22,354 nucleotides of DNA from Candidatus Thorarchaeota archaeon (GCA_046758445.1 JBHIAE010000046.1:1-22354), one strand, 5' to 3'. Shown: positions 1 through 16,739, numbered from the stretch's first letter. The notes: generated from the letters alone by a model not told the origin. Program-made: numbers and translations.

Positions 1-451
1 TCCCACCCCTCCCACTCTTTCTGTCCGAGTGTTACATCAGTTTTGCAACAGAGCCTCGTTCTGGAGAACTGTTACTGGCTCATTCCTCCTCTTCGTCTGC
101 AACGATCAACCAGAGCAAGTCCTTGGCAATGACGACCCCGCCTACCCTTTAGGGCACTTCCCTGTCGGTCGTTGTTTCCTACATGAGTTTCTTGGGTGGA
201 TTCTTCTATTGAGAGAGCACAGTTCGATGGGTAAGAAAGAATGTGGCCAAAGAACCTTGCGGAATCCTGTTAGGTTCTCTGACCAGTATGACAGCACACG
301 ACTCTCTAAGGTCTGAGATGTGTACAGACTGTCGTCCTTTCGCCTTCCCTATAAGCACCTACAAAGTGTCGTTTGCGTGAACCTTTGACTCTAGCCTCCG
401 GAGCAACCGCCTACGGATCTTCGTCATTTGCACTCCCTGACATATAGGGAC

Positions 452-709
452 ATGACAGCTTCTAGGATTCTAAGGCGCCACGGTGTGGCGGTGGTCAACA
501 GGCGCAGACGCGCCAGCAACGGCTCTCTTGAGATGCAGTGCCTTGGGTGTGGGGCATGGGTCCCCGTCAAGGAGGGGAGAAGGGTCCAGTGGTCCGGTAC
601 TGGCGTCACTGACAGGACAGTGGCCGGGCTCCCCACCATCGAGTACTACTGCGTGACCTGTGAGGGCATGCTCGACCGTGTGCTATACATCCCAAGGAGG
701 CTCGTGTGA
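452..709 (+). CDS. Small Zn-ribbon-like hypothetical protein (mobile-element operon)
   Basis: Two CxxC pairs (CLGC, CVTC). ATG at 452 follows AGGGA and is preferred over the TTG at 428. The stop overlaps the next start (GTGA). Confidence 0.6.
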   Translation: MTASRILRRHGVAVVNRRRRASNGSLEMQCLGCGAWVPVKEGRRVQWSGTGVTDRTVAGLPTIEYYCVTCEGMLDRVLYIPRRLV

Positions 710-984
710 CCATGCAGGAGGAGCTTCCAAGGATTGAGTTCGTGGGGATGAGAGTCGAGATCAGTATGCTCCGCGCTGGGGAGGAGTCCACCACTAGGCT
801 CTCTATGGAGAGGACTGCGGACGGCTGGACCTTCCACTTCCACGGTCCCAGTCCTCTGGGTGAGACCTGTCCCGACATTGACCTAGACGGTTTCAACAGG
901 GGTGAGGCATGTGCACTACTGTTCAACTGGTTGACGGTGTTTGCCAACACGGAGTTTGAAGGGGTTGTGAATCGTGCAGACTGA
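706..984 (+). CDS. Small acidic hypothetical protein
   Basis: 92-aa ORF overlapping both neighbours; 16 D/E versus 7 R and 0 K. Confidence 0.6.
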   Translation: MTMQEELPRIEFVGMRVEISMLRAGEESTTRLSMERTADGWTFHFHGPSPLGETCPDIDLDGFNRGEACALLFNWLTVFANTEFEGVVNRAD

Positions 985-2233
985 GCAGACGCAGGACGCG
1001 GTTTCAACTGTGGACCTTGAGGGCACTCCCCTCACTCTTGAGATGCGTGAACTTCTGACCTTCAGTGTTGACCATGTGACTGGTCGACGCGTGGCAGACG
1101 AGTGGGACCGTGCGATTCCGACAGCAGTGACCTACAACCCGGAGTCACAGAGGTTTGAGGTCCCCTTCGGGAGGAAGCCTGCTGCTTGGGTCAGGGATGT
1201 GTTGAAGTCTATGCACTTCGGCTGGAACAAGTTCGAGGGCTGTTGGGAGCTGTACACATGGCAGGTCAGACTCTATGAGAGAGAGCCAATTGGCGCGTTT
1301 CTCTCGTCACTGTTCTCCGGGGTGCTGATTGACCCGCCGGAGGTCCCCGATGGCGCACGGCGCAGGTGGTGGAAGGAGGTACGGGACATGCCCGCAAAGT
1401 TCGTCGAGCAACTGGCCGAGGCCACCGATGCGGAGCGTAATAGGGAGGGCGTCGGGCAGTGGCTCAGGTTCGTGAGAGGCTTCAAACAGTACTCTCCATA
1501 CAACATTCTCTCGATACTGATACAGTGCCCCGAGGCTTCCTTTGTTGCAGGAGAACGACATTGGAACAGCCTAGGCCGTTTCGTCAAGTGGGGAGAGAGC
1601 CCTATCATCATTCTAGGGCCACGCTTCAAGACCATCAAGGAGGATGACCCCGAAACCGGAGAGGAGGTCAAGACGAAGGTGTTGGCTGGCTTTCTTGCCC
1701 TGCCCGTCTATGACGTTTCGCAGACTGAAGGAGAATCACTACCTGAACCTATGAGGATTCCGCGGATTGAGGGCGACGAAGGAATGGTTTTCCTTGAAGC
1801 CATGAAGTCCCCCTGTGTGGAACATGAGATAATGTACAACTTCGCAGAGCTTGAGGATGGCCTAGGGGGGCAGTCCGCACGTAGGTGGATTAGAGTAGAC
1901 AACACTGGTTCTATCAACGAGCAGCTTGCTCTCATGGTCCATGAGGTAGCACATGAGTATCTTCATTGGGATGGCCTTGCGAAGCCGAGCCAAAGAAAGC
2001 TTGAAACAAAGAAGTGGCAGAGGGAGGTAGAGGCAGAGGGTGTCGCCTATGTGGTTTGTAGCTTCTTCGGTCTTCCTACAACGTCATCTCCATACCTAGC
2101 TGCTGAAGGGGCAAGTGGCAAGGACATCATGACACTAGTGATAACTTCCCTTGAGGCAGCTTCCAGTATCATTTGCTACCTCATTGAGAAGGCTTGTTGG
2201 GGCAAACCTTTTGCGCTTAAATCATTCAGATAG
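974..2233 (+). CDS. ArdC-like ssDNA-binding (ArdC-N/DUF1738-type) protein with C-terminal zincin metallopeptidase (HExxH) domain and an extra N-terminal domain
   Basis: ArdC-N-type motifs YSPYNILSILIQCP..SFVAG...W..LGRFVKWGE and PVYDVSQTEG; HEVAH at 1940-1954 followed by EVEAEGVAY. Confidence 0.85.
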   Translation: MQTEQTQDAVSTVDLEGTPLTLEMRELLTFSVDHVTGRRVADEWDRAIPTAVTYNPESQRFEVPFGRKPAAWVRDVLKSMHFGWNKFEGCWELYTWQVRLYEREPIGAFLSSLFSGVLIDPPEVPDGARRRWWKEVRDMPAKFVEQLAEATDAERNREGVGQWLRFVRGFKQYSPYNILSILIQCPEASFVAGERHWNSLGRFVKWGESPIIILGPRFKTIKEDDPETGEEVKTKVLAGFLALPVYDVSQTEGESLPEPMRIPRIEGDEGMVFLEAMKSPCVEHEIMYNFAELEDGLGGQSARRWIRVDNTGSINEQLALMVHEVAHEYLHWDGLAKPSQRKLETKKWQREVEAEGVAYVVCSFFGLPTTSSPYLAAEGASGKDIMTLVITSLEAASSIICYLIEKACWGKPFALKSFR

Positions 2234-2253
2234 ACTATCATGGTTGTGGAGTC

Positions 2254-2631
2254 ATGACAGCGCTTAGCTTGGCAAAGATGAAGAAGGCACTAACTCATGA
2301 GGACTTCCTTCATGTGCATGAAGTTCTCTCCCAGCTTACTTCAGACCTCGGATGGACTCGCGCATGGACAACCCTTCAGGATGCGATTGCAGGGACTGTT
2401 GGTACAGGCTGGTACAGCGTCAACCTGACAATCCTCTCTGTCTTCAAGATGGAGGAGCTGATTGGGTACGATGGAGATGTTCCAGAGGTCCTTGCTACAC
2501 TCCAGAATACGCGTAATTTCGGCGAGGTTGATGGAGCATTCTTCGAGAGCATGACGGACAGAGTCAGAAACCAATTGACCAGACACGGTTCGACACGCAG
2601 AAGATGGAGACACGACGAACAGCCTCTCTGA
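2254..2631 (+). CDS. Hypothetical protein
   Basis: 125-aa ORF in the operon, GGAG before ATG, overlaps the next ORF. Confidence 0.6.
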   Translation: MTALSLAKMKKALTHEDFLHVHEVLSQLTSDLGWTRAWTTLQDAIAGTVGTGWYSVNLTILSVFKMEELIGYDGDVPEVLATLQNTRNFGEVDGAFFESMTDRVRNQLTRHGSTRRRWRHDEQPL

Positions 2632-3854
2632 TCCCTGATATTGCATCTGCTAGGAGATTTGAGTTTGCAAGAGTAGTCAAGGACCTAGTTGACCAAGGAG
2701 TCTTCAGCTACCCGGCTGGGTTTGAACAGAAACCATTGCTTCTTACAGCCTATGGTAGAAGACTAGTCGAGGAAACAGGGGTTACTGAGTTCAAGTACTT
2801 GGCTCCGCACCTTCAGGAGCTTGGTAGAGAGATAGGAGTTGACGTCCCTGAGTTTATCCCACTAGGTGATTCGAAGCCGTACGTCATCGGGGCAAAGACC
2901 CCCGAACGTCCCAAGCCTTGGCAACCGGGGGTGTCTGAGCGGCTTGCCAGAGTTATGCTTATGTTCACGGACATAATGGACCCACCATCCATCAATGACA
3001 TATACACCCTTTTCGAATCTGGGTTTGCCTCATCGGCTGATGTTGTCACTCTTGTGATAGAAGACCGACAGGACGCATGGACGCAAGGTCTCGGCTACAT
3101 GGCTTACTACGACGAGATGTCGATGGACAGGATCTATCTAGCTGCTGTTGAACATCTCGCTTCTCTGTCCTTCTCCCAACATAGGACCAGCCTCCTTTCC
3201 AAGGTCCTGGTCAAGAGGCTACCTTACCACTATGAGAGGAGAAACTACGCCTCCGAGGTACAGCTAGCTGCGATAAGGGGTCTTCGGAAAGACAAGGCTA
3301 ATCGGGCAACGAAGGCAGTGTTGGAATTCGTGAAGCGTCAGGAGTGGGAACCTTTTGGCGAGAGCTGCAAAGACAGGCACGCCGTTCTCCTCTATACAAC
3401 TTCGGATGTCCTAGACGAATCACTTGGTTTTCTTATTGAACGTGGTCAAGACATTCAGGAATTGTTGACCTCCTTCATGGACTGTTTGAATTGGTCTTCA
3501 GAGGGGGGTATAGGTGAAGTCATCACTAGGCGGCTCGTTGAAACTAGCGGGGTGGAGGCGTTCGAAGCGTTGATTTCACATCTCAGGTGGGAGAGAATGG
3601 GTTGTGGCTCAGGCGTAAGTGATAATGTCTCTAATGCATTAACCACTCTTGGAACAGAAATCCTCCCAAAGCTGCAGAACTACTTATGGGACAACGGGTC
3701 AATCAATCGCACCGTGGTTGCTATTATGGAACGTATTGAAATCTCATCGAAACCACTGATGGAGTTCTTGGTCCAAAACGCCCGGAGTATATCCGCACAC
3801 GACACGGAATGGCTATTCAAGACAATTCGCAACGGTGATAGCTTATTACCGTGA
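2604..3854 (+). CDS. Hypothetical protein, possible N-terminal winged helix and C-terminal HEAT-like helical repeats
   Basis: 416-aa ORF; 'VKDLVDQGVF...LLLTAYGRRLVE' is wHTH-like; VQLAAIRGL, AFEALISHL and VSNALTTLGTEILPKL are HEAT-like. Confidence 0.65.
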   Translation: METRRTASLIPDIASARRFEFARVVKDLVDQGVFSYPAGFEQKPLLLTAYGRRLVEETGVTEFKYLAPHLQELGREIGVDVPEFIPLGDSKPYVIGAKTPERPKPWQPGVSERLARVMLMFTDIMDPPSINDIYTLFESGFASSADVVTLVIEDRQDAWTQGLGYMAYYDEMSMDRIYLAAVEHLASLSFSQHRTSLLSKVLVKRLPYHYERRNYASEVQLAAIRGLRKDKANRATKAVLEFVKRQEWEPFGESCKDRHAVLLYTTSDVLDESLGFLIERGQDIQELLTSFMDCLNWSSEGGIGEVITRRLVETSGVEAFEALISHLRWERMGCGSGVSDNVSNALTTLGTEILPKLQNYLWDNGSINRTVVAIMERIEISSKPLMEFLVQNARSISAHDTEWLFKTIRNGDSLLP

Positions 3855-4002
3855 TTCACTGCTTTTTCGCATTCCGGCTAGCATAACCCTTCTTCTAGGT
3901 GTTTCGTCATTTTGGTCACGATTTTTGGGAATTAAGAAAAAGGAAGCACCGTTTCGTTTTTTCGATAAGTATGCGCTTTTTAACAGAAACCCTCTCACAA
4001 AA

Positions 4003-4015
4003 GAAAACCTTATAG
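4003..4015 (+). promoter_or_regulatory. BRE-TATA promoter for candidate ncRNA-1
   Basis: GAAAACCTTATAG, about 25 nt upstream of the first paired G (4039). Confidence 0.65.
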
Positions 4016-4038
4016 GCCCAATTGGTCCTCCTTGAGTC

Positions 4039-4140
4039 GGAGACGCAAGACCCGCGGATTCACGTTCGTTAACTTGAGTTTCCTGTTGCTTCAGTCTGCG
4101 TCCCTCCCGGCGGAGATCAACAGGTAGCGGGTCTTCTCCA
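4039..4140 (+). ncRNA. Candidate ~102-nt structured ncRNA (three-way junction, possible pseudoknot), family not recognised
   Basis: Helices GGAG/CTCC, AAGACCCGC/GCGGGTCTT, GGATTCA/TGAGTTT and CCTGTTG/CAACAGG; own TATA box and oligo-T tract. Confidence 0.65.
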
Positions 4141-4151
4141 CCTTTTTCTCC
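4141..4151 (+). terminator. Pyrimidine/oligo-T archaeal terminator
   Basis: CCTTTTTCTCC immediately after the closing helix. Confidence 0.5.
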
Positions 4152-4266
4152 AGAAAATCACGGATTTGTGTTTCAGCTGTCTTCTGCCGTGCTGTCAATT
4201 ACGCTGAAGATTCAGGACAAGCTTCTTATCATCGTTGACTCAGACTCTCGAATTGGTGAGCAAAGA

Positions 4267-5046
4267 TTGGAGCGCGTAGAGCTTGGCTGGGATGATTTCT
4301 GGGCGGAGGTCTTCCGTGTTAGGCATCGTGGGTCGATACCTGGCATCCAGCAGTACGATCAGCTGGTTGTAGACTTCTGCTCTGATGTCTTGGACCTCAA
4401 AGAGGACAACTCTCTTCTGGACATTGCTTGTGGGGCAGGTGATCAGAGCATTCTCTTCGCCAAGCGTGGGATGAGCGTTTCGGGCTTTGACATTGCGGGC
4501 AGTCTGATTGAAATTGCGAAATCTCGTGCAGCTGAGGCCGGACTAAAGATTGACTTCTTCACTGGAGACATGCGCAAGATTGACGTGGACCAACCGTTCG
4601 ACGCCGCAGTGCTTCTCAGTCACAGTTTCGGCTTCTTTGACCACGAAGAGAATCAAGGAGTTCTGAAGGGTGCGTTCAAGGCACTCACAAAAGGAGGTAG
4701 GCTCCTCTTAGATCTCATGAATCCCTACAATCTTCCGCGTTTTCAGAAGACCTGGATGAAGTTAGAGAATGACTTTCTGTTGAGTGACCCACACGTCATC
4801 GATGCCCCAGCAGGCGTTTTGCGAGGTCGACCTGCGACATTCATCGAAACAGAGGCAGGACGAATCGTATTCATGAATGAGGACGCAATGAAGAACAACG
4901 ATATCCGAATGTACACAGCACTTGAGATCAGACACATGCTTGAAGATGTCGGTTTCACAAAGACGGAGTTGTATGGACAGAACAAACTGCCAAGAATGCC
5001 ATACGCCGCGAATTCAGAGCGAATGGTAGTGGTTGCAAGTAAGTGA
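4267..5046 (+). CDS. Class I SAM-dependent methyltransferase
   Basis: Motif I LLDIACGAG, plus GDMR, FDAA and GGRLLLD; TTG start at 4267 after GGTGAG SD (4255-4260) and a CTTATC TATA-like box (4225-4230). Confidence 0.9.
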   Translation: MERVELGWDDFWAEVFRVRHRGSIPGIQQYDQLVVDFCSDVLDLKEDNSLLDIACGAGDQSILFAKRGMSVSGFDIAGSLIEIAKSRAAEAGLKIDFFTGDMRKIDVDQPFDAAVLLSHSFGFFDHEENQGVLKGAFKALTKGGRLLLDLMNPYNLPRFQKTWMKLENDFLLSDPHVIDAPAGVLRGRPATFIETEAGRIVFMNEDAMKNNDIRMYTALEIRHMLEDVGFTKTELYGQNKLPRMPYAANSERMVVVASK

Positions 5047-5085
5047 AGCGCTATTCCAACTGATCCATTTGAGAGAGGAGAATCA

Positions 5086-5890
5086 ATGAAGTTAGGTGTT
5101 GTTCTTCGCTTGGTGAATACTGGCTATGACCACAAGGGCATTGGAGAATTTGTTCAGAATGTCGAGGACCCGGGATATGACTACTTACTTGCCTACGACC
5201 TTGTGACGAAGACTGAAGGGTCACCTCCTCCAACAAGTGAACCATTCGTTCTGTTCAGCTATCTAGCAGGATTGACAAGAGGACTGGAGTTTGCAGTAGG
5301 AGTCCTGATTCTACCTTCAAGACAAACAGTACTGGTTGCAAAACAAGCTGCAGAACTTGATCTACTGTCTGATGGACGTTTGCGACTTGGTGTTGCCGTC
5401 GGCTGGAACGAGAGTGAGTATCAAGCTATGAATTCGGGCTTTCACAGTCGCGGAAAGCGTATAGAGGAACAGATCACCGTTTTACGAGAACTCTGGACTA
5501 AGCCATTGGTCAGATTCAAGGGCGAATACCACAATATGGACGGCATTGGCATTGACCCTCTTCCAGTTCAACGTCCTATCCCAATATGGCTAGGCGGGTA
5601 CTCGGATTCCGTCCTGAATCGGGTTGCTCGCGCATATAACGACGCCAGAAGATGGGGAACCAATGATAGAGAGATTGCAAGGCTATGTCGAAGAATCAGG
5701 ACGCACGATGGAGGATCTCGGCATCGGTGTCTGTCTGGATATGCATTTCTCACACGACTGGAACAAGTATGTTGAAGCATGGAGCGAACTGGGAGCGACG
5801 CATTTCGACATCGACACCTCGAGAGCCGGCTTGAAGACTCCACAGGATCATATCGATGTATTGACTCGCTTCAAAGACGAGTGGGGATGA
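5086..5890 (+). pseudogene. LLM-class (probably F420-dependent) oxidoreductase, frameshifted near 5626-5631
   Basis: N-terminal part has EPFVLFSYLAG, AKQAAELDLLSDGRLRLGVAVGW and PIPIWLGG. The C-terminal part (W.ELGATHF) continues in another frame, and the usual DGW motif is missing at the junction. Confidence 0.8.
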
Positions 5891-5915
5891 AGTTGGTCAC
5901 TCGGCGTGTCCCTGA

Positions 5916-6043
5916 CGAAATTCTTTTAAGATTCTATAAGCGTGGTCGGCAAAGCCACCGAGAAGGCCCTCGGTGACTCCAACCGAGTTCTTTCGGAACT
6001 TTGACTTATGGAATTGGAGTCAGACTATTCGAAAGTAAGGTGA
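5916..6043 (+). promoter_or_regulatory. Promoter plus ~95-nt structured 5' leader of the EF-2 paralog
   Basis: CGAAATTCTTTTAAG promoter-like motif; helices CACCGAG/CTCGGTG, TGACTCCAA/TTGGAGTCA and AGTTC/GAACT; SD AGGTGA at 6038-6043. Confidence 0.6.
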
Positions 6044-6049
6044 AGACTA

Positions 6050-8263
6050 TTGGTCAAGATTAAGGACCCAGATGCCATTAAGAGGCTCATCAAGTCAGAT
6101 GATTATGAGCACAAGAGAATCATCTCAATCAGTGCTCACATCGACCATGGAAAGACAACGACGACGGACTATCTCATGCGCCGTGCAGGTCTGATGAGCG
6201 ATGCCGCTGCTGGACAGGCATTGATGACAGATAGCGATGAAGAAGAGCAAGAGAGAGGAATCACAATCTTCACCTCTGTCGTGCTACTCAACTTCGACGT
6301 TGATGGCGAAGAATACCTCGTGCAGCTGTCCGATACACCTGGGCACCTCTCATTCACTGGTGAGGTTTCCCGTGCTCTCCGTGCCAGCGATGGGGCAGTC
6401 ATACTTGTCGACGCCCTTGAAGGAGTCATGACGCAGACTGAAACAAACATCCGTCTTGCTGTGGGTGGCGAGGCGTGCAAGCCCGTGCTCTTTGTAAACA
6501 AGGTGGATAGATTGATCAACGAGCTGAAGCTGCCACCGGCAAAAGTCTACGAACGCATCGACATCATCATTGCCAAAGTGAATGAGCTGATCAAGAAGGT
6601 CGCTCCAAAGGAATACGCAAAGGATTGGAGGGTCAATTTCCAAGAGGGAAGCGTAGCCATCGGCAGCGCGAAGACTGGCTGGGCATTTACGATGAAGACT
6701 CTTGAGAAGCAGGGAATCAAGCCCACCGTCGTGTTCGAGAAATACGGCGAGGGCGATGAGATGTGGCTAAGAGAAAATCTTCCCCTAGATGATGCTCTTC
6801 TCGAGATGATTGTATATCACCTTCCGAATCCGAAGGACGCTCAGAAGTACAAGATACCAAGGATATGGAAGGGAGACTTGGAAACTCCTGAAGGGAAAGC
6901 CCTTCTGGAGTGTAATCGCAATGGACCGCTTCTCGGTATGATTACAAAGATCTTTGTGGACCCGAAGAGCAAGAGACCAACTCTCATTGGACGAGTCTTC
7001 TCCGGCACCATCAAGTCAGGTCAGACCATGAGGCTCGTTGGAATGAAACAGAATGTTACAGTGAAAAGACTAGGCGTGCAGGAGATTACCGACATCCTCC
7101 CAATGGACAAGGTTCCCGCAGGAAACTTGTTCTCTGTATTTGGCTTCATATGTCCCTCTGGCGAGTCTTTCGTTGAGGTTGATTCAGACATGCCAGCTTT
7201 CGAGGCCATCGAGTACGTGAGCGAGCCAGTTGTCAGTAGGAGCATCAAGCCAGTAGACCCGCAAGACATTGCGAAACTTGGTGAAGTTGTTTCAAAATGG
7301 ATTATGGCTGATCCCACAGCCAGATTCATTCATGACAAGGAGTCAGGCGAATACCGACTAGACGGCATTGATCCACTACAGATAGAGATTCTCACAAAGC
7401 GCATCAACGAGCAGGTAAAGATCTCGATCTCCGAACCTATCATTGTGTACCGTGAGAAGATCACCGAGCGTGGTGACGAGTTCCACACCAAATCGCCAAA
7501 CGGTCACAACCGCCTACGCCTCTATGTTGAGCCGCTTGATGATAAGACAGTGGAGCTAATCAGGAGGAAGCGGATCACACCCGACCAGAACGCCCGAGAG
7601 CGTGCTCAGATTCTTCGTGATGAGGCAGGATGGGACGCAAAGAAGGCAAGGAAAATTCTCGACATCTATGAGTCCTCAATGCTTGTAGATGCCATGAGTG
7701 GAGTGCAGAGGTTCGACAGGATATTCTCCTATCTGCAGACTACGTTTCGAGATTTCATTGACCAGGGTCCACTGGCACGCGAACCCGTGATGGGAGTAAA
7801 GGTTGTGCTGACAGATGCGACTGTTCATACTGATCCTGCCCACACAGGATACAACGAAGTCGCCACAATGACAAGTTCTGGACTGAACATGAGTTTCCTG
7901 ACAGCTACTCCGGGTCTCTTTGAGCCAATCCTCAACACTGACATAAAGACCCCCACTGATACACAGGGCGGAGTGATAAAGGTCCTTACCGGTCACAGGG
8001 GACAGGTTGTCACGATTGAGGCCGAGGAGGACACAGTCACGATTAAGGGTGTCCTACCCACTGCGGAAACTATCGGCATAGCAGACGAGTTCAGAAGTGC
8101 AACTGCAGGGCGGAGCTTCTTTGGATATGAGTTCAGAGGGTTTGAGCCACTACCGGGCAGTCTGCAAGAAGAGAAGATTCTGGAGATCCGAAAGCGCAAG
8201 AAGATGCCCGAACAGATGCCGAGCCTGAGCTCATGGAGCAGATGGGTGTACAGACGAACCTAG
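6050..8263 (+). CDS. Translation elongation factor 2 family GTPase, divergent archaeal paralog (aEF-2p-like)
   Basis: G motifs AHIDHGKTT, RGITI, DTPGH and NKVD; full 737-aa length; diphthamide loop reads DPAHTG; not next to rps7/rps12/EF-1A. Confidence 0.92.
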   Translation: MVKIKDPDAIKRLIKSDDYEHKRIISISAHIDHGKTTTTDYLMRRAGLMSDAAAGQALMTDSDEEEQERGITIFTSVVLLNFDVDGEEYLVQLSDTPGHLSFTGEVSRALRASDGAVILVDALEGVMTQTETNIRLAVGGEACKPVLFVNKVDRLINELKLPPAKVYERIDIIIAKVNELIKKVAPKEYAKDWRVNFQEGSVAIGSAKTGWAFTMKTLEKQGIKPTVVFEKYGEGDEMWLRENLPLDDALLEMIVYHLPNPKDAQKYKIPRIWKGDLETPEGKALLECNRNGPLLGMITKIFVDPKSKRPTLIGRVFSGTIKSGQTMRLVGMKQNVTVKRLGVQEITDILPMDKVPAGNLFSVFGFICPSGESFVEVDSDMPAFEAIEYVSEPVVSRSIKPVDPQDIAKLGEVVSKWIMADPTARFIHDKESGEYRLDGIDPLQIEILTKRINEQVKISISEPIIVYREKITERGDEFHTKSPNGHNRLRLYVEPLDDKTVELIRRKRITPDQNARERAQILRDEAGWDAKKARKILDIYESSMLVDAMSGVQRFDRIFSYLQTTFRDFIDQGPLAREPVMGVKVVLTDATVHTDPAHTGYNEVATMTSSGLNMSFLTATPGLFEPILNTDIKTPTDTQGGVIKVLTGHRGQVVTIEAEEDTVTIKGVLPTAETIGIADEFRSATAGRSFFGYEFRGFEPLPGSLQEEKILEIRKRKKMPEQMPSLSSWSRWVYRRT

Positions 8264-8391
8264 AGTGAATCACACTTGGGTGGGTGGAGTCCGACTGGTC
8301 GGCGCTCGCTCTCCTTGCTTCTGATTCAGCCCAATCATAAGTATTGCATTCGATGGATATTTGACTGACGTAGCTCCCCTTCAGACACATT

Positions 8392-9720
8392 ATGAAACTC
8401 AAAGCACTTGATGAGCTTGGGACGCTGATCTCCTTCAAGACAATCAATGATCCTCCAGAGAAGAAAGCATCCTCCGCTTGCGCCAAATACATCAACGAGA
8501 AGCTCGAATCATTTGGATTCTTGACTGAGCTTATCGAGTCTGACGGGTACACTACCGCCTTTGGTCGTCGAGGCCACGGAGAGTTCAAGATACTGTTCCT
8601 TGCACACTTTGATGTAGTTCCAGTTGGCAAGGGATGGAATTCCGACCCTTTCAGGATTAGAGTAGACGGAGATAGAGCCTATGGCCGGGGGACATGTGAC
8701 GACAAAGGTAACGTTGTGTCTTTGCTGATGTTGGCTGAAGAGATTGCAGAGAGCGACTATCCAGCCACGGTGATGATTGCCGCTACTGGGGACGAGGAGA
8801 TTGGTGGTAGAAACGGTGCCTACGTACTCAGAGAGCACTTGGTCAAATCCGGTCTCTTTCCAGACTACGTAGTGGTTGCAGATGGCATCGACCAGCAGAT
8901 AATACACAGAAGACGAAACATCCTGCCGACCACAATTAAAGCAAAGACCTCTAAGAAGAGGCTGAAAGGACGTCACGAAACAGTTCGTTTCACCACAGAG
9001 TTCCTTGGTAGCGAGTCTCGTCATTCAGCATACATGAGGCCTGGTGTAGACAGACACTCGATGTTGGCAGCCTCCAAGCATCTGGACGTGAATCCATATG
9101 CTGTTGTCCAGAACTTGAGAGGCTCATTCCTGAGATCCAACATTGTACCCGATTGGGTCGAAATTGATCTTCTACATCCCGATGATACGGCCTCAGAGGA
9201 AGAGTATGATAGTACGCTCACGGCCTTAATCAGATCACTTCTGCCCGTATCACAGGCGGCATTCCCAACGAAGCACTCCGATAAGGGGACAATAATCTCG
9301 CCGAACCTGCTCTCCTTGGAGGATGACCTTTGGACCCTCTACTTTGATATCCGCGCCATGACTAACGACGGTGAATCGGTCGAGAATGCCATCCAAAGTG
9401 CATTGGATGACTCTGTGGATATCTTCTCACTGAAAGTGAACTCTGGAGCTGGCTATGTGGATTCAGACCCGGATTCACGACTCATCCGTTCTGCAAAGTG
9501 GGGACTGGAGAAAGAAGGCATTCGGTATCGTTTGATTGAAGGATTTGGTGGATCAGACTCACGCTTCTTCTCAGACGGGCCTGAACTATTCGATTTTGGG
9601 CCGCGAGGAGGCAATGTCCACGGGCCAAATGAGTGGGTTTCACTCTCTTCAATAAGGGAGAATGCTGACTTCTACTATACCCTGATTGAGGTGCTCTTGA
9701 GGAAACCTAGTGGGTTGTGA
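8392..9720 (+). CDS. M20 family metallopeptidase/deacylase (ArgE/DapE-like)
   Basis: AHFDVVP, GRGTCDDKG, DEEIG, GGSDSRF, HGPNE. Confidence 0.92.
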   Translation: MKLKALDELGTLISFKTINDPPEKKASSACAKYINEKLESFGFLTELIESDGYTTAFGRRGHGEFKILFLAHFDVVPVGKGWNSDPFRIRVDGDRAYGRGTCDDKGNVVSLLMLAEEIAESDYPATVMIAATGDEEIGGRNGAYVLREHLVKSGLFPDYVVVADGIDQQIIHRRRNILPTTIKAKTSKKRLKGRHETVRFTTEFLGSESRHSAYMRPGVDRHSMLAASKHLDVNPYAVVQNLRGSFLRSNIVPDWVEIDLLHPDDTASEEEYDSTLTALIRSLLPVSQAAFPTKHSDKGTIISPNLLSLEDDLWTLYFDIRAMTNDGESVENAIQSALDDSVDIFSLKVNSGAGYVDSDPDSRLIRSAKWGLEKEGIRYRLIEGFGGSDSRFFSDGPELFDFGPRGGNVHGPNEWVSLSSIRENADFYYTLIEVLLRKPSGL

Positions 9721-9775
9721 ATACCGCTTCGGAGTCATATCCGCCTCTACGGAAGCATCATTCTCACTGAGAGTC

Positions 9776-12700
9776 CTACCTCTCGCTAGGTGATATCGCT
9801 ACCAAAAGCTTCTCCTCGCCGAAGGTGTATTCCTCTTGGAAGCTACCGGTGGGCTTCTTCGCCTTCTTCAAGCTGGTGGCAAGTGTTTCCTCCGTGATAT
9901 ATCCTACATGAAGGTCAACTGCTTCAGCCATTCGCTTACTTGAGGAGTATTGAACTTCGATCATCTCGCTGACGTTTAGATCAGCTGACTTGCGCAAGTT
10001 CTGTACACGTCGAACGAACTCTCGTGCCAATCCTTCTAATTCCAGCTCATTTGTCAGTTCTGTCGTCAACGCTGCCACGTACGCGCCTTCTGCGGCTGTG
10101 GAAAAGCCCTCTTTTGCTTCGACTATGACCTCGACTTCCTCGGGCAGGATCTCGAACTTGTCGTCATTCACACGCACTTCTACAGATTCGCCAGCTTGAA
10201 ACTTAGTCGATACCGTACGCGGGTCCAGACTCATTATTGCATTGCGTATTGCAGGGAATTGGGAACCATACTTTTGACCAAGTTGCTTTGGGAGTGGTTT
10301 GAGCTGATAGTTCATCACCTCTGCAGCAACGTCGAGCAAACGAACACTCTTGACATTCAGTTCATCGCCAATCAGGTCTGCATAACGCAAGAGGATCTCC
10401 TGTTCTTTATCCAGTCCAACAGCAAATGCGATTTCAGATAACGGTTGACGAAGCTTGCGATTTGCTATGTTTCTTGCTGCGTGACCTAAGGACACCAATC
10501 GAAGCACTAGCGCCATCTCATTGGTAAGCACATTATCTACTGCATCGCTCACGGGCCAATCGCAGTGATGAACGCTCTCCGGTGCGCTTGTGTCAACACT
10601 CCTGACCAAGTTCTGGTGCATCACTTCTGACATAAATGGGACAAATGGGGCAAGTAGTCGGGAGAGATTGACCAAGACTCGATACAAGGTATCATATGCC
10701 GCATTCTTATCTGCGTCAGCCTCATCACTTGCACCTGATTCTGCCCAGAAGCGGCGACGGCTTCGTCGCAGATACCAGTTACTCAGGTGATCAATGAATC
10801 GGTCTACAACAGCTGCCGCCATGTTTGGTTCATAGGATTCTAAGTATGCAGTGACATCTCGAGTAACCTCGTTCATCCGGGAGAGTATCCACCGGTCTAG
10901 TAAGCCGGGAGTAGTCTTCAAGCCCTTCTTGGGAACCCACCCGTCTATGAGGGCATATGTGACAAAGAATGAATAGACATTCCATAGAGGGATTAGAAAA
11001 TGACGCCTAACTTCGTCACCGCGAGAATAGCCGAAAACAAGGTCTTTTTCGGGCCTATGTGAACAGAAGAGCCAACGCATCACATCCACTCCCATTTTAC
11101 TTGCGGCCTCATTAAACTCTATCATATTGCCCCAAGACTTGTGCATCACTCTGCCATCTTCACCGAGCAAGAGGGCATATGTGAAGACATGTCTAAATGG
11201 TGCTCTACGTTCTAATATGGTGCTCATTGTTAGAAGGCTATAGAACCAGTTTCTGAATTGACCTGGGAAACTCTCACTGATGAGTTCTGCAGGGAACCAC
11301 TTGTTCCAATACTTTCTGTCTGAGTTGTACCTTATGGTACTCATTCCAACTATTCCCGCATCTAACCAGGGATTACCTACGTCTGGGATTCTCTTCATCC
11401 TCTTGCCACATTCACTGCACTCTACCTCAATCTCATCAATAAATGGTCGATGAGGTGAATGACCCTCGAACATATCCCAGCCTGCTACAGCGCGCTTCTT
11501 TAGTTCCTCTCTGCTGCCTATCACATCAAAGTGGCCACAGTCTGAGCACTCCCATATGGGCAATGCGAGTCCCCAATATCGTTTCTTGGAAATCATCCAG
11601 TCATCCATATTCCTTAACCAGTCTAATTCCCTCTCTTTTCCAAAGGAAGGATGCCAGTTTGTTTCGTTGGCAACAACTTCCATGATTTGATATCGAAGGT
11701 TGCTCTCCTTCTGTTCTTCAGTGACCTCTTCATAGGGGATGTCAAGTTTGGCTCCCATTGAAATGAACCACTCATCAACAAGACGAAAGACTAGTTCCTC
11801 CTGACAACGCCAGCACACAGGATATCTGTGAGTATAGTCCTCTACCTTGTAGGTCAGTCCCTTCTTGGTTAGACTATCAAAGATGGGTTGGGCAACAGTA
11901 TTGACATTCATTCCAGACAACCAATCAAACCCGTCAATGAAGATACCATTCTCTGTAAGGGGTGCGATTGCAACAAGATTGAATTCCTTGGAGAGTTGGA
12001 AGTCCTCCGCTCCGCAGCCCGGGGCGACGTGCACGATCCCGGTGCCTTCCTCTTCTCCCACTTCATCCCATAGTATCACCTTGTGTCTTCCAGCAACTCC
12101 ACTCTCCTTTTGAGCCGGGAGTTCGTCAAAGGGACCGTGATAGAGCCAGCCCTCCATGTCAAAGCCAAGTAGCTCTCCTTCGACTTCGTAATCGCCTTTC
12201 AATATGTGTAGAGTCCCTCGGCTCAGGTAGAAGATCTCCTTGCCCTGACGCACTCTCACATAGGTCAGTTCGGGACCGACTGCAGCTGCTACATTACTGC
12301 TCAGTGTCCAGGGGGTCGTTGTCCATATCAGCAGACTCTCTCCGGGACGGTCCACTAACGGGAATCTCAACGTGATGCTTGGATGTGTCAACTCACGGTA
12401 GCCCTCGGTGACTATCTCATGTTGACTGATGGCTGTTCCACATCGAGCACACCACGGCATCACATCTCGACCTTTGTATATCCAACCCCTTTCATGACAT
12501 GACTTCAATACTGTCCAGATGGTGTAGTTGTTCTCTTCAGAGAATGTGTAGTATGATCCGCCAACCTCGGGCATTCCAAGTCTACCAACTAGCTGCTCTA
12601 CTGTATCTGTGACTGGACCATCTACACCATCAATGGTCATGACTGCCATCGGGTCACTGCCGAGTGCATCATGAAGCTTCTGAAGAGTTTCAAGATTGTC

Positions 12701-13132
12701 CCAGTCCATCCAAAAACCCAGTCGGATGCTTTGCTCAGTCATCACTCCAGCATACTTCAGTACACGCTGCTTACACAGGATGATGAACTTCTCCAACCCG
12801 TATTCTTCTATGTCTTGCTTGCCTTTGAAGCCCATATCACGCTCAACGTTTACCTCAACCCAGAGGCCCTGACAATCAAAGCCATTCTGATAGCGGGTAT
12901 GGTATCCCTGCATGGCCTTGAAGCGATGGTATAGATCCTTGTATGTTCGTCCCCATCCATGATGCACACCCATGGGATTGTTGGCTGTGATAGGACCATC
13001 GATGAACGACCATCTCGGTCCTTTTGCCCTCAGTTCCTTCAACTTCTTGAAAGCCTGGAGATCCTCCCATAGCTTGAGTGTCTCAATCTCTTGAGCAACG
13101 AAGTCAACCTGACTGGGGACTGGCTTGAACAT
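9776..13132 (-). CDS. ileS: Isoleucyl-tRNA synthetase, type 2 (IleRS2) with GVHH/VMHKS signature variants
   Basis: FIDGPITAN, GFDCQGL, WTTTPWTL and GTGIVHVAP editing motifs, DWMISKKRYWG, LSNWYLRRSRRRFW; ATG at 13132 follows a GGTGA SD. Confidence 0.97.
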   Translation of the reverse strand: MFKPVPSQVDFVAQEIETLKLWEDLQAFKKLKELRAKGPRWSFIDGPITANNPMGVHHGWGRTYKDLYHRFKAMQGYHTRYQNGFDCQGLWVEVNVERDMGFKGKQDIEEYGLEKFIILCKQRVLKYAGVMTEQSIRLGFWMDWDNLETLQKLHDALGSDPMAVMTIDGVDGPVTDTVEQLVGRLGMPEVGGSYYTFSEENNYTIWTVLKSCHERGWIYKGRDVMPWCARCGTAISQHEIVTEGYRELTHPSITLRFPLVDRPGESLLIWTTTPWTLSSNVAAAVGPELTYVRVRQGKEIFYLSRGTLHILKGDYEVEGELLGFDMEGWLYHGPFDELPAQKESGVAGRHKVILWDEVGEEEGTGIVHVAPGCGAEDFQLSKEFNLVAIAPLTENGIFIDGFDWLSGMNVNTVAQPIFDSLTKKGLTYKVEDYTHRYPVCWRCQEELVFRLVDEWFISMGAKLDIPYEEVTEEQKESNLRYQIMEVVANETNWHPSFGKERELDWLRNMDDWMISKKRYWGLALPIWECSDCGHFDVIGSREELKKRAVAGWDMFEGHSPHRPFIDEIEVECSECGKRMKRIPDVGNPWLDAGIVGMSTIRYNSDRKYWNKWFPAELISESFPGQFRNWFYSLLTMSTILERRAPFRHVFTYALLLGEDGRVMHKSWGNMIEFNEAASKMGVDVMRWLFCSHRPEKDLVFGYSRGDEVRRHFLIPLWNVYSFFVTYALIDGWVPKKGLKTTPGLLDRWILSRMNEVTRDVTAYLESYEPNMAAAVVDRFIDHLSNWYLRRSRRRFWAESGASDEADADKNAAYDTLYRVLVNLSRLLAPFVPFMSEVMHQNLVRSVDTSAPESVHHCDWPVSDAVDNVLTNEMALVLRLVSLGHAARNIANRKLRQPLSEIAFAVGLDKEQEILLRYADLIGDELNVKSVRLLDVAAEVMNYQLKPLPKQLGQKYGSQFPAIRNAIMSLDPRTVSTKFQAGESVEVRVNDDKFEILPEEVEVIVEAKEGFSTAAEGAYVAALTTELTNELELEGLAREFVRRVQNLRKSADLNVSEMIEVQYSSSKRMAEAVDLHVGYITEETLATSLKKAKKPTGSFQEEYTFGEEKLLVAISPSER

Positions 13133-13483
13133 GTCTTTCACCGACCATTGTAGCTTTCAAACGCAACATAGCTATTCGATGGGTGTTGCAACATTTTCTC
13201 ATACTGTCTTGAATATTCTTCAAAAATCGAACAAGCATGTTATCAGAGAATGGACTGGAATGACCTACACCCGAGCTAGTGAATTTGGCAATCCATCCTA
13301 ATCTCACCTATGTATGCTCTTTGAGAAAAGCAGTTGACCCCGTTAAAAAGCTTAGGCTAGTCGAACTTGACCACCTGCAAGCCACACTGAGTGTTTCGAG
13401 TCACTTGAAACGACCAAGACTTAATTGCAGCCGAAAGGACCTTCTCCGATAACCGGCTTTGCAGTCGGCCCATGGTGACGACT

Positions 13484-14155
13484 ATGAGTGCCCTTGAAGA
13501 AAGGTCAATCGAAGAGCTTGCTGATCTGATTCTTAATGTCAGATGGCAGGACCTTCTAGAAGTCTGGGGAGTCATCAGGAAGAAGATGGATGCAGACGGT
13601 CCTGATACTGTCAAGTCTGGCTTTCAGAGCGCTACGCAACGATTCATGGAGGGCACTCTTGAGAACCACCTAGAGGTTCGTTGGGGTATGAACCTCTGCA
13701 TGCATTGCAACGATGACAATATAGAGAAGAATGGAATCTGCTACGTACAGCCCAGCGGAGATGGACTTGAATTCAACCAGTGTCTGAACTGCCGGATTGG
13801 GATTCTGTACAACCTGGTCAGTGCAAACGCCAAGATGGATACGTATACTATTGGCATTGGAAATCCTGAACAGTTCAACGGAATGTCCTTCTTCTGGAAC
13901 GCGATTGTCCCTGATAACCTCGGCAGGTTTCAGCCTTCCTACGAGGTCATATCCAAAGGTCAATGGGTGGGTACCGTGTCGTTTGATGCCACTTTCACCC
14001 CAAGGTTCTTGGCATTTGGAAAGATGACTGCTTCAACGAAGAGGGATGCAGAAGAGCCCTGGACCTCCGACCTGCCGGATGAGATGAAGGCCGCCGTGGA
14101 TGCCTTTATTGAAGCCGCCCTTCCGCAAATTGAAGTCGCACTTGCACTAAGATGA
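13484..14155 (+). CDS. Hypothetical protein with CxxC...C...CxxC putative metal site
   Basis: Long ORF with CMHC and CLNC; ATG at 13484 after GGTGA (alternative start 13472). Confidence 0.75.
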   Translation: MSALEERSIEELADLILNVRWQDLLEVWGVIRKKMDADGPDTVKSGFQSATQRFMEGTLENHLEVRWGMNLCMHCNDDNIEKNGICYVQPSGDGLEFNQCLNCRIGILYNLVSANAKMDTYTIGIGNPEQFNGMSFFWNAIVPDNLGRFQPSYEVISKGQWVGTVSFDATFTPRFLAFGKMTASTKRDAEEPWTSDLPDEMKAAVDAFIEAALPQIEVALALR

Positions 14156-14174
14156 TATTCTGGAGGATTCGCAC

Positions 14175-14492
14175 TTGCCTGAGAAATTGGTCCGTGACAA
14201 GATACCAGATATAATCAGAACTGGGGGTCAAGAGCCGACTGTCCGAGTCGCCCATGGTGATGAACTAGACTATCTCATGAGAGCCAAGGTTGTTGAAGAG
14301 GCCGGCGAGCTCCTCTCTTCTGGAAGTAGTGATGAGATTGTAGACATTCTCGAAATCATTGATGCATTGCTCGAGCTGAGGTCAGTTGATCCATCCACTA
14401 TCGACGACAAGATGCGCAGGAAGAGGGAAGAACGTGGTGGTTTCAGGAGGGGATTTGTGCTGACCATGGAAGATGGGTCCAAGATTGACTGA
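14175..14492 (+). CDS. MazG-like/PRA-PH-type nucleoside triphosphate pyrophosphohydrolase
   Basis: KLVRDKIPDII, KVVEEAGE, EIVDILE and KREERGGF signature; TTG start after GGAGG. Confidence 0.9.
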   Translation: MPEKLVRDKIPDIIRTGGQEPTVRVAHGDELDYLMRAKVVEEAGELLSSGSSDEIVDILEIIDALLELRSVDPSTIDDKMRRKREERGGFRRGFVLTMEDGSKID

Positions 14493-14519
14493 CCCCTTTT
14501 CATACTCGGAGTCATCGGA

Positions 14520-14610
14520 CAAAGGTTATATTGAAGAATTCGCGGTGCCCACGTAGAATACCACCCCGTTTAGTGGTGGTTCCACTTTGTGATTTTGGAG
14601 TGGAAAGATA
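14520..14610 (+). promoter_or_regulatory. tes promoter and two-hairpin leader covering the SD
   Basis: CAAAGGTTATATT; helices TACCAC/GTGGTG and TTCCACTTT/GGAGTGGAA. Confidence 0.5.
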
Positions 14611-16254
14611 ATGGAAACTGAGAGAGTCGATCCAGTACCAGAGCAGCCGATTGTTCATGAGGACACTGGAGAGCTGAAGAGATTCCGTGTAGAGAAGTAT
14701 CCAGTTCGCGATCTGCCCTATCAGACTCAATCGATATGCCCTGACTGCCTTCTAGATAACGATGAGGTTCGCGTCATCGATGCCACTGTGTACGAGGAAG
14801 AAGGCAAAGTCATGTACAAGAAGTCCTGTCAAGATCACGGGGAGTTTGTCGACGTATACTGGGGCGACGCTGAGATGTTCAAAGAGGCCCAGAAGTGGTG
14901 GTTCAAATCTGTCGGTCTGGACAATCCGAGGACGCAGACGGTCAAGGGGTGCCCGGAGGACTGTGGTCAATGTCCGGAGCACAAGTCACACACCGCTCTG
15001 GCTCTGCTTGATGTCACGAACCGATGTAACCTACGTTGTCCCATCTGCTTCGCAGTAGCGGCAGAGGGTGGTGATGTGTTCGAGCCTGAGCCAGAGGAAG
15101 TACTGGAGATGATGCGGAATCTGCGTAGAAACATGCCAGTTCCGGCACCTGCAATTCAGTTCGCGGGTGGCGAACCAACAGTGACTAAGCATCTTCCCCA
15201 GTACATCAAGTGGGCGAAGGAACTAGGATTTCGACACGTCCAGATTGCGAGCAACGCAATCAGAGTTGGAAAGAGTAAGGAGTACCTACAAGAGCTACGT
15301 GACGCGGGACTGTCAACTATCTACATGCAGTTCGACGGAGTGACACCTGAGCCATACTTGGAAGCCCGAAACACAAATCTGCTACCAGTGAAGGAACAGG
15401 CAATTCAAAACGCCCGAGAAGTCGGCATGGAGTCATTGGTTCTTGTACCTACTGTAGTGCGCGGAGTGAACGACGACCAGGTAGGTAAGATTGTGGAGTA
15501 CGCTGTGGAGAATAGTGATGTCATTCGATGTGTGAACTTCCAACCCGTAAGCATCACGGGTCGCATTGACTACGAAGCACGAAAGCAGATGCGTATCACG
15601 ATTCCAGATGTGATTCATCTAATCGAGGAACAGACTGGAGGCAAGATCCCATCTCATGTATGGTATCCTGTGCCTGCCATGATGCCCGTGGGTCGTGCAC
15701 TTGGCCTGATGAAGGGCAATCCTCAGCTCGAGCTGAGTACTCACTTCGCATGCGGAATGTCCACGTTCATCTACATCAACGATGAAGGCGACTATGAGCC
15801 AATCACCAATCTGATTGATGTCGATAAGTTTCTTGTCCTGCTAGAAGACATCTCAAACCTCTTTGCTGAGCAGAAGACAGGCGCCAGTGCACGCGCAAAG
15901 GTTAAGCTGGCCGCAGGTCTCAGGCACATAAAGAGGAGAGGAGTCATCAAAGATCTGATTGGTGCTTTTCTGAAGCGCGGCGACTACGAGTCTCTAGCCA
16001 AGTTCATGCGGCGCATCATAATGATTGGGCTCATGCACTTCCAAGACCCATTCAACTTCGACTTGGAACGCATCCAGCATTGCGACGTGAACTATGCCGT
16101 GCCAGATGGCAGAATCATACCGTTCTGTACCATGAACACCATCCACAGGTCCAGGGTTGAAGACAAGTTCAGCAAACCGGTCGATGAATGGCGCGCTCAA
16201 CACAAACCCACCAGGGTCGAGGAAGACAGCATCTCTAAGCCGTTTATGGGCTAA
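14611..16254 (+). CDS. tes: Radical SAM tetraether lipid synthase (Tes / GDGT-MAS, MJ0619 family)
   Basis: N-terminal SICPDC...C..HG, GCPEDCGQCPEH cluster, CNLRCPIC radical SAM motif, GGEPT, C-terminal C...YAVPDGRIIPFC. Confidence 0.88.
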   Translation: METERVDPVPEQPIVHEDTGELKRFRVEKYPVRDLPYQTQSICPDCLLDNDEVRVIDATVYEEEGKVMYKKSCQDHGEFVDVYWGDAEMFKEAQKWWFKSVGLDNPRTQTVKGCPEDCGQCPEHKSHTALALLDVTNRCNLRCPICFAVAAEGGDVFEPEPEEVLEMMRNLRRNMPVPAPAIQFAGGEPTVTKHLPQYIKWAKELGFRHVQIASNAIRVGKSKEYLQELRDAGLSTIYMQFDGVTPEPYLEARNTNLLPVKEQAIQNAREVGMESLVLVPTVVRGVNDDQVGKIVEYAVENSDVIRCVNFQPVSITGRIDYEARKQMRITIPDVIHLIEEQTGGKIPSHVWYPVPAMMPVGRALGLMKGNPQLELSTHFACGMSTFIYINDEGDYEPITNLIDVDKFLVLLEDISNLFAEQKTGASARAKVKLAAGLRHIKRRGVIKDLIGAFLKRGDYESLAKFMRRIIMIGLMHFQDPFNFDLERIQHCDVNYAVPDGRIIPFCTMNTIHRSRVEDKFSKPVDEWRAQHKPTRVEEDSISKPFMG

Positions 16255-16337
16255 AGACACTGACCCCAAGGCATCAAGATCGCTGTTCATTGGGGTCCAG
16301 CTTCCTCATTCTTGGTCTGGGCCAAATATGCCAAAGT

Positions 16338-16350
16338 AAACTTTAATATA
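16338..16350 (+). promoter_or_regulatory. BRE-TATA promoter for candidate ncRNA-2
   Basis: AAACTTTAATATA with no credible ORF downstream; phzF has its own box at ~16740. Confidence 0.55.
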
Positions 16351-16380
16351 GATGGCGACTTTCTAAAGTTGGATAAAGTC

Positions 16381-16504
16381 GGTGGGTGTGCGGGAGCTCG
16401 ATCTCCAGGTGCATACTCAAGGCGAGCATGTGGGCTAGTTTTTCGTTACATGCCCTCAATTACGAAACTCCCCCCTCCTACCACGATTTCCCGCGTGCTC
16501 GCCA
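16381..16504 (+). ncRNA. Candidate ~124-nt structured ncRNA, family not recognised
   Basis: 14-bp helix GGCGAGCATGTGGG/CCCGCGTGCTCGCC, plus GGGTGTGC/GCATACTC, GGAG/CTCC and TTTCGT/ACGAAA; G-U pairs indicate the + strand; pyrimidine-rich tail. Confidence 0.6.
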
Positions 16505-16739
16505 CCTCATTCCTTCTCAAAATCGCAGACGGCGGTTTCTGTATCGGTGTTCTGTTAATCTTTCACATATTATAGAGAGTCCTGTGCATTACTACCTGGT
16601 TTAACAATTCGGACAAGTTCAGCATTCCCTAGTGTTCTGGCGTCTGTCACTTCTTCTTGCCATGCCTGTGTGCTACATCGTATCCTGAATCATTACCGTT
16701 GGTCGAAGTCGGTTCCGCTTGCCAATAAGGCAACCACAT

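Follow-up and report, generated by a model that had tools for sequence, protein, structure and literature searches.

Two candidate small RNA gene families with exposed anti-Shine-Dalgarno-like tracts in Thorarchaeota

In Firmicutes, small RNAs with C-rich or UCCC motifs, such as RsaE/RoxS and the multi-copy LhrC1-5 of Listeria, pair these unpaired motifs with Shine-Dalgarno (SD) regions; RsaE-like RNAs are conserved and single-copy, and LhrC-like RNAs are multi-copy siblings. The cuckoo RNAs of Alphaproteobacteria (alpha-r14) consist of two to four adjacent hairpins, each with CCUCCUCCC in its loop (PMC4615179), and in the archaeon Methanosarcina mazei the intergenic RNAs sRNA154 and sRNA41 have anti-ribosome-binding-site loops that mask the ribosome-binding sites of their targets (PMC5867862). 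Here we examine two RNAs encoded on the + strand of a 22,354-nucleotide (nt) stretch of a Candidatus Thorarchaeota archaeon (GCA_046758445.1 JBHIAE010000046.1:1-22354; the window hereafter), which belongs to a metagenome-assembled genome with a 3.25-Mb assembly that is 92.7% complete. Both loci are intergenic: RNA-A (~4039-4148) lies between a 416-amino-acid (aa) open reading frame (ORF) and an S-adenosylmethionine (SAM)-dependent methyltransferase gene, and RNA-B (~16372-16510, conserved domain 16421-16507) has a radical-SAM gene on one side and a PhzF-family gene on the other. The gene status, structure, distribution and non-homology of the two RNAs are as a whole well established, as is the finding that the end motifs by which a preliminary description had linked them occur no more often than by chance. 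The overall explanation, in which these small RNA genes form two independent non-homologous families specific to Thorarchaeota and act in trans, we consider probable, and their transcript ends, trans action and targets, taken together, we infer tentatively.

With respect to these described systems, RNA-A and RNA-B would be archaeal analogues of the bacterial C-rich small RNAs, RNA-A being comparable to the single-copy RsaE type and RNA-B to the multi-copy LhrC type; the Firmicutes RNAs differ in that they are bacterial, involve bacterial chaperones and RNases, have other folds and show no homology to either RNA. The likeness to cuckoo RNAs consists of scattered multi-copy genes, variable stems and the invariant unpaired C-rich, anti-SD-like CCUCCUCCC. 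However, cuckoo RNAs are bacterial and carry their motif in tandem hairpin loops, whereas RNA-B has one long closing stem, a large interior and two different boxes, and the three-way junction of RNA-A presents just one CCCUCCC loop. Membership in the cuckoo family was rejected because RNA-B carries CCCCCCUCCUACC in a joining strand and not in tandem loops, and neither RNA has an Rfam match; the cuckoo RNA is the closest architectural analogue, by a likeness that would be functional only. The M. mazei RNAs embody the same idea of ribosome-binding-site masking and offer a precedent in archaea for the mechanism proposed below, although they come from a different phylum, have no sequence relation to RNA-A or RNA-B, and have targets and regulation that were demonstrated by experiment, whereas here we infer the mechanism.

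Structure and distribution of the two RNAs

RNA-A is a single-copy RNA of ~105-110 nt that folds as a three-way junction (4039-4148). A TATA box (cTTATAGG, 4009-4016) precedes it, and in 28 of 31 orthologues a TATA-like motif comes 26-30 nt ahead of the model match; of random 100-nt stretches, only 1.3% contain such a motif. Its closing helix, P1, has a first part in which GGAGA (4039-4043) pairs with UCUCC (4135-4139) and a second part in which AGACCCGC (4048-4055) pairs with GCGGGUCU (4127-4134), with a 4-nt bulge within the helix. P2 (~4056-4081) is a variable hairpin that is retained despite changes in sequence and length (CACG/UGUG, CAUG/CAUG, CAGAUG/CAUCUG, CAUCAUG/UGAUGG), and the third arm, with P3 formed by 4082-4088 and 4118-4124, is invariant. 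Its apical loop, the anti-SD-like CCCUCCC (4102-4108), is unchanged in all 31 aligned orthologues and has a predicted probability of being unpaired of 0.85. A run of five T residues (4144-4148), read from the sequence, follows directly after the closing helix and is likely an archaeal terminator; the orthologues have a pyrimidine- or T-rich tract at this position, and in several a clear T-run is missing. A covariance model built from 16 orthologues matched 4037-4144 at 121.7 bits, and in our survey of the order, which consisted of covariance-model searches of 61 genomes and for RNA-A also used BLAST, 57 genomes had exactly one copy; the second family of the order, represented by one genome, is not among them. 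An alignment of 30 distinct sequences has 95.8% of its cells paired and contains seven pairs that have changed on both sides, values reached by none of 500 shuffles and by no slid control; P1b covaries.

RNA-B also has a TATA box (TTTAATATA, 16342-16350), and 71 of 87 family members have a TATA-like motif within 100 nt upstream, at distances falling into two groups: 35-44 nt in short forms and 75-84 nt in forms with a 5' hairpin. This hairpin (16381-16416 in the window, beginning GGUGGG) is an extra insert of the window's subfamily relative to the terminal helix of the short forms; it is kept with different sequences in orthologues (GGUGG/CCAUC, GGUAGG/CCUAUC, GGAGGG/CCCUCC) and is absent from the short subfamilies. 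The conserved domain, which includes the 3' ACCU (16421-16507), matches its covariance model at 116.5 bits. Its 14-bp P1 (16421-16434 with 16490-16503) is supported by covariation, and its P2 is formed by 16441-16446 with 16462-16467. The P2 loop holds box A (ACAUGCCCUCA, 16448-16458), which is near-invariant in 84 distinct members and has a predicted probability of being unpaired of 0.84, and a single strand holds box B (CUCCCCCCUCCUACCAC, 16468-16484), which contains CCUCCUA and has a corresponding probability of 0.97. Together with UUUUCGU, ACAUGCCCUCA and CUCCCCCCUCCUACCAC make up a near-invariant, G-poor interior. Part of the 84-sequence set was gathered by a pattern containing two of the interior boxes (box A included), but the set collected by BLAST shows the same interior conservation as the large alignment; in it box B is identical, with one base different each in genome G007 and in the paralogue C73b.

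While the interior of RNA-B stays nearly fixed, its closing stem drifts yet remains paired: across the 84 distinct sequences, 272 cells have changed on both sides, a count matched by none of 500 shuffles, and P1 (12 pairs scored) accounts for 259 of them. The covariation score was 0.49, as compared to at most 0.075 in slid controls. The conserved unit is 97-100% identical across the genus. This genome has six further copies by BLAST and nine in total by covariance model, and all 61 genomes of the order have between one and ten. In a phylum-wide sample, all 18 genomes belonging to the order had RNA-B, as against none of 102 others from 24 further families.

Folds at both loci depend on the strand. 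When compared to dinucleotide shuffles, the + strand gave z scores of -3.5 (RNA-A region) and -3.0 (RNA-B region) and the - strand -1.6 and -0.65, respectively. These strand-specific folds, the covariation, the promoters at fixed distances and indels that are not multiples of three are the reasons for which we judge both to be real RNAs, and the indels further argue that neither region is coding. A coding reading of RNA-B (frame MWASFSLH...) was rejected, as paralogues differ by 1-2-nt indels and the ATG is lost. The proposal in the preliminary description that both loci encode noncoding RNAs is thus borne out, both being free-standing structured RNA genes that have their own TATA boxes, as is its report of an exposed CCCTCC in each; the predicted probability that the tract is unpaired reaches 0.97-0.98 in RNA-B.

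Neither covariance model recognized the other locus. The RNA-B covariance model found no match in 4035-4149 with filters off and E up to 10, and the RNA-A model found none in 16377-16510 or at other RNA-B loci. Because the models fail to cross-match, and because topology (a three-way junction versus a stem with a large interior) and copy number (1 versus 1-10) differ, they do not form one family by descent. Common descent is not plausible, a common processing pathway seems improbable, a common mode of action is plausible, and the anti-SD display of the two RNAs is probably convergent.

Known RNA classes gave no match. An Rfam 15 scan returned no match at gathering scores and noise alone at E up to 10, and ARAGORN found no tRNA and no transfer-messenger RNA (tmRNA) in the window. 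No C/D or H/ACA boxes were found in either RNA, the sole Rfam snoRNA matches lying outside both (E 2.7 and 6), and H/ACA status for RNA-A was rejected as the triplet after its closing helix varies (ACC, AUC, ACU, ACA, AUU). By eye, neither closing helix has a G·A/A·G tandem in the right register for a K-turn. RNA-A, as a three-way junction of ~105 nt, was also considered as a 5S rRNA and rejected, there being no 5S match in Rfam at 3800-4300. The best 5S candidate of the genome (contig C2, 29256-29407) reaches 32.4 bits, short of the gathering score of 38, and extends over 152 nt where the model has 120 positions; it looks divergent or expanded.

Shared end motifs and the tRNA-like reading

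The preliminary description had joined the two RNAs into one class by their termini, and the hexamers on which this was based are where it placed them: AGTCGG at 4035-4040 and 16377-16382, and CCACCT at 4138-4143 and 16502-16507. As a signature, the pair does not hold. In the whole 3.25-Mb assembly, AGTCGG-N80-130-CCACCT has 14 matches and its reversed control 23; the 12 matches other than RNA-A and RNA-B lack an upstream TATA-like box, and eight of them sit within open frames of at least 119 codons. Each hexamer has a chance of ~2-3% of occurring in any 110-nt stretch, so that two pairs in one window are nominally unusual, but the motifs were picked post hoc with free choice of ends, and conservation is therefore the relevant test. 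Among the orthologues, neither RNA retains the AGTC before its conserved GG: in RNA-A the four nt preceding the conserved GGAG read AGTC, GGTC, AGTT, TGAT, CATT, CAAT, ATAT and others, and in RNA-B the bases preceding GGU(G/A)GG are equally free. Based on TATA spacing, RNA-A probably starts at ~G4038-4039, and the AGTC may thus lie outside the transcript.

At the 3' end, the fixed part of RNA-A is CUCC-A, and the next bases vary (CC, UC, CU, CA, UU) and lead into the pyrimidine/T tract. The main RNA-B subfamily keeps GCC-ACC-Y, but the ACC is missing in distant paralogues. Short RNA-B subfamilies begin with GGUGG or GUGGUCAG, which pairs with a 3' CCACC or CUGGCCAC, and CCACC is therefore simply the end of a terminal helix. 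Pairing of the 5' and 3' ends, which had been described for both RNAs, is seen in RNA-A (GGAGA with UCUCC) but not in RNA-B, where the minimum-energy fold puts the 5' GG in or near the separate variable 5' hairpin. Nor does RNA-B extend over 16377-16507 as a conserved unit, which instead begins at ~16417-16421. We conclude that the AGTCGG/CCACCT likeness is a coincidence built on generic features, namely a purine- or G-rich start of the closing helix, a C-rich 3' strand and then a pyrimidine-rich archaeal terminator.

It is accordingly highly improbable that the RNAs form one class of tRNA-end-like, switchable small RNAs with a GG...CC-A-CC mimic of an acceptor stem, whose maturation would depend on RNase P, tRNase Z or the CCA-adding enzyme. 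There is some resemblance to tRNAs and tRNA-like structures, in that a terminal G-C helix is followed by an unpaired A and pyrimidines: in most members of the main RNA-B subfamily the 14-bp P1, which starts GGCGAGC and ends GCUCGCC, is followed by ACC, and in RNA-A an A and pyrimidines come after the GGAGA/UCUCC helix. RNase P, tRNase Z and the CCA-adding enzyme recognize stacked helices of 12-14 bp. However, neither ARAGORN nor Rfam (E up to 10) gave a tRNA or tmRNA match, and there is no cloverleaf, T-loop, D-arm or conserved CCA. What follows P1 in the main RNA-B subfamily is ACC and not CCA; it is missing in distant paralogues, the short forms pair their CCACC with a 5' GGUGG, and the tail of RNA-A is variable (ACC, AUC, ACU, ACA, AUU). 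The end motif occurs at the genome-wide chance level, the AGTC is not conserved, and homology between the two RNAs is lacking. A class of tRNA-end-like RNAs recognized by common termini therefore fails, on the very checks of recurrence and conservation that the preliminary description had set, and should not seed further searches.

Competing partners had also been described for a terminal strand of each RNA. In the window, the 5' segment of RNA-B can indeed compete for the 3' strand of P1 (z -3.2), but only 7 of 49 members show this alternative pairing at significant strength, and a conserved switch was rejected. For RNA-A, a pseudoknot or alternative pairing GACGCA/UGCGUC was likewise rejected, as it is broken by two changes in one genus that are not compensated. 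Neither switch is supported as a family feature.

Proposed action at ribosome-binding sites and rival explanations

The 16S rRNA of this genome ends in AUCACCUCCUA. Box B of RNA-B repeats seven bases of this anti-SD tail (CCUCCUA) and RNA-A repeats five. Of the crude start codons, 36% have an SD core at -16 to -3, as compared to 15% of control ATGs, with a peak at -15 to -11, so the genome demonstrably uses SD sequences. The TATA boxes, the invariant unpaired tracts and the match to the 16S tail in RNA-A and RNA-B, and the SD enrichment in the genome, agree with the features of trans-acting anti-SD small RNAs. Action on SD sequences had been suggested in the preliminary description, and it is consistent with invariant unpaired CCUCC tracts complementary to the SD in an organism that uses it. 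Judging from these sequence features, RNA-A and RNA-B are most likely trans-acting RNAs that mask SD sites. RNA-A would be transcribed from its own TATA box, end at the T-rich tract and present CCCUCCC in a hairpin loop; in RNA-B, the covarying 14-bp stem would hold open an interior with two C-rich boxes, one of which repeats the 16S tail. Acting in trans, the exposed CCUCC tracts would pair with ribosome-binding sites of the GGAGG type, and by masking them would lower or tune translation. The copies of RNA-B have no neighbouring gene family in common, several flanking ORFs being without a Pfam match, which favors trans action.

Several observations weigh against this proposal. Sites complementary to box B (GGTAGGAGGGG, at most one mismatch) were not enriched over control in three genomes, and no long-seed target therefore stands out. 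Any SD could be paired by a CCUCC tract, which leaves specificity unexplained. In RNA-B, ~45 nt of the interior are near-invariant across the whole order, beyond the usual need of a pairing seed, a breadth that hints at a protein partner or a role in a ribonucleoprotein (RNP). One and the same methyltransferase gene always follows RNA-A, at a distance of 0-120 nt save for two loci at ~390 and ~1000 nt, and RNA-A may therefore act in cis. One site complementary to box B, on contig C2, was set aside because it is in a coding region where Rfam matches neither rRNA nor any other family. The conserved tracts pair with pre-16S, pre-23S and 5S rRNA no better than shuffles do.

The position of RNA-A invites the explanation that, instead of being a separate small RNA, it forms the leader of the mRNA of the downstream SAM-dependent methyltransferase and acts in cis, as a riboswitch-like or a protein-binding element. 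All 30 orthologous loci have the methyltransferase, which Pfam confirmed, downstream of RNA-A and on its strand, mostly within ~120 nt, with the conserved part of the gene mostly starting ~70-120 nt after RNA-A, and the orthologues without a clear T-run after RNA-A would fit a leader. Yet in the two loci where the gene is ~390 and ~1000 nt away RNA-A is intact, the T5 run of the window comes directly after the closing helix, no Rfam riboswitch matches, and covariation does not support the proposed alternative pairing. The synteny extends equally to the flanking tRNA-Gln (23 of 30 loci have tRNA-Gln(CUG) upstream of RNA-A), so the linkage may reflect gene order only, and we consider the leader explanation unlikely. 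A different explanation would have RNA-B, and possibly RNA-A, serve as the RNA of a protein complex or as a protein decoy and not as an mRNA-pairing regulator, for example as a mimic of the 16S tail titrating a KH-domain Dim2/Pno1-like or Nob1-like protein, or as a binder of an Sm-like protein at the UUUUUCG tract. The ~45-nt interior that hardly varies across the order while the stem drifts is a pattern typical of RNP RNAs, and the exact 7-nt match to the 16S tail (CCUCCUA), the conserved U-rich tract and the lack of enriched long complementary target sites agree with it. On the other hand, RNA-B has no conserved neighbour gene, no partner protein was identified, and the Y RNA/Ro version, considered for the long terminal stem and pyrimidine-rich interior of RNA-B, was rejected, as no TROVE protein was found in this 92.7%-complete genome (Rsr was detected in control genomes) and Rfam gives no Y_RNA match; such a role is doubtful on present evidence. 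We retain the masking of SD sites in trans as the most likely action of both RNAs.

Genomic context and meaning for Asgard archaea

In ~25 genomes RNA-A and RNA-B are on one contig and the same strand, 10.6-16.6 kb apart, and because of this the ~12-kb spacing in the window is read as conserved gene order. The radical-SAM gene flanking RNA-B, named tetraether synthase in the preliminary description, carries an HMPTM zinc-ribbon domain. Next to RNA-A (4168-4260), the GTG at 4168 that is annotated as the start of the methyltransferase ORF is open to doubt; in most loci conservation of the orthologous proteins begins only at residue 34, and the true start may be further downstream. In relatives, tRNA-Gln(CUG) is 170-250 nt upstream of RNA-A, whereas in this genome contig C6 (1392-1669) carries the tRNA together with the spacer that follows it, and ~57 nt of the spacer are present twice, at C6:1392-1485 and at 3888-3991 in the window. 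Because the tRNA-Gln is on C6 and the ~57-nt spacer is in both places, the gene block containing ArdC-N (~450-3854) looks like an insertion between tRNA-Gln and RNA-A with a short flanking duplication.

Two of the RNA-B paralogues lie 2 kb apart on contig C73 (9600-11717). One of them, C73a, has ~40 nt of upstream flank in common with the copy on contig C82 (5295-5386), which points to recent duplication. Several of the ORFs next to these copies (441, 524 and 241 aa) have no Pfam match, and a viral origin found no support, the conserved core of RNA-B being unmatched in IMG/VR contigs. The 16S gene (contig C2, ~3100-3156 of its stretch L233) carries, after its last canonical helix and ahead of the AUCACCUCCUA tail, an extra hairpin-forming segment of ~31 nt (GAUGGAAG...CUUCCAUC). 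The small-subunit rRNA alignment of Rfam ends before this segment.

We found no account of either RNA in the literature on Asgard or Thorarchaeota noncoding RNAs; RNA-A and RNA-B are uncatalogued families and obvious additions to RNA family databases. A more far-reaching and, in our estimation, improbable version of the SD-directed reading is that RNA-B, in multiple copies throughout Thorarchaeota, mimics the 16S 3' tail and acts as a global decoy for SD leaders or for a tail-binding protein, with RNA-A as a second, independently evolved member of the same regulatory layer. If true, translation initiation capacity would be set by the copy number and expression of RNA-B RNAs, and RNA would control ribosome docking in the archaea most closely related to eukaryotes. 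The literature searched contains no characterized small regulatory RNA from Asgard archaea, and two lineage-wide, very strongly conserved RNAs bearing anti-SD tracts would be good first candidates for the study of post-transcriptional control in this group.

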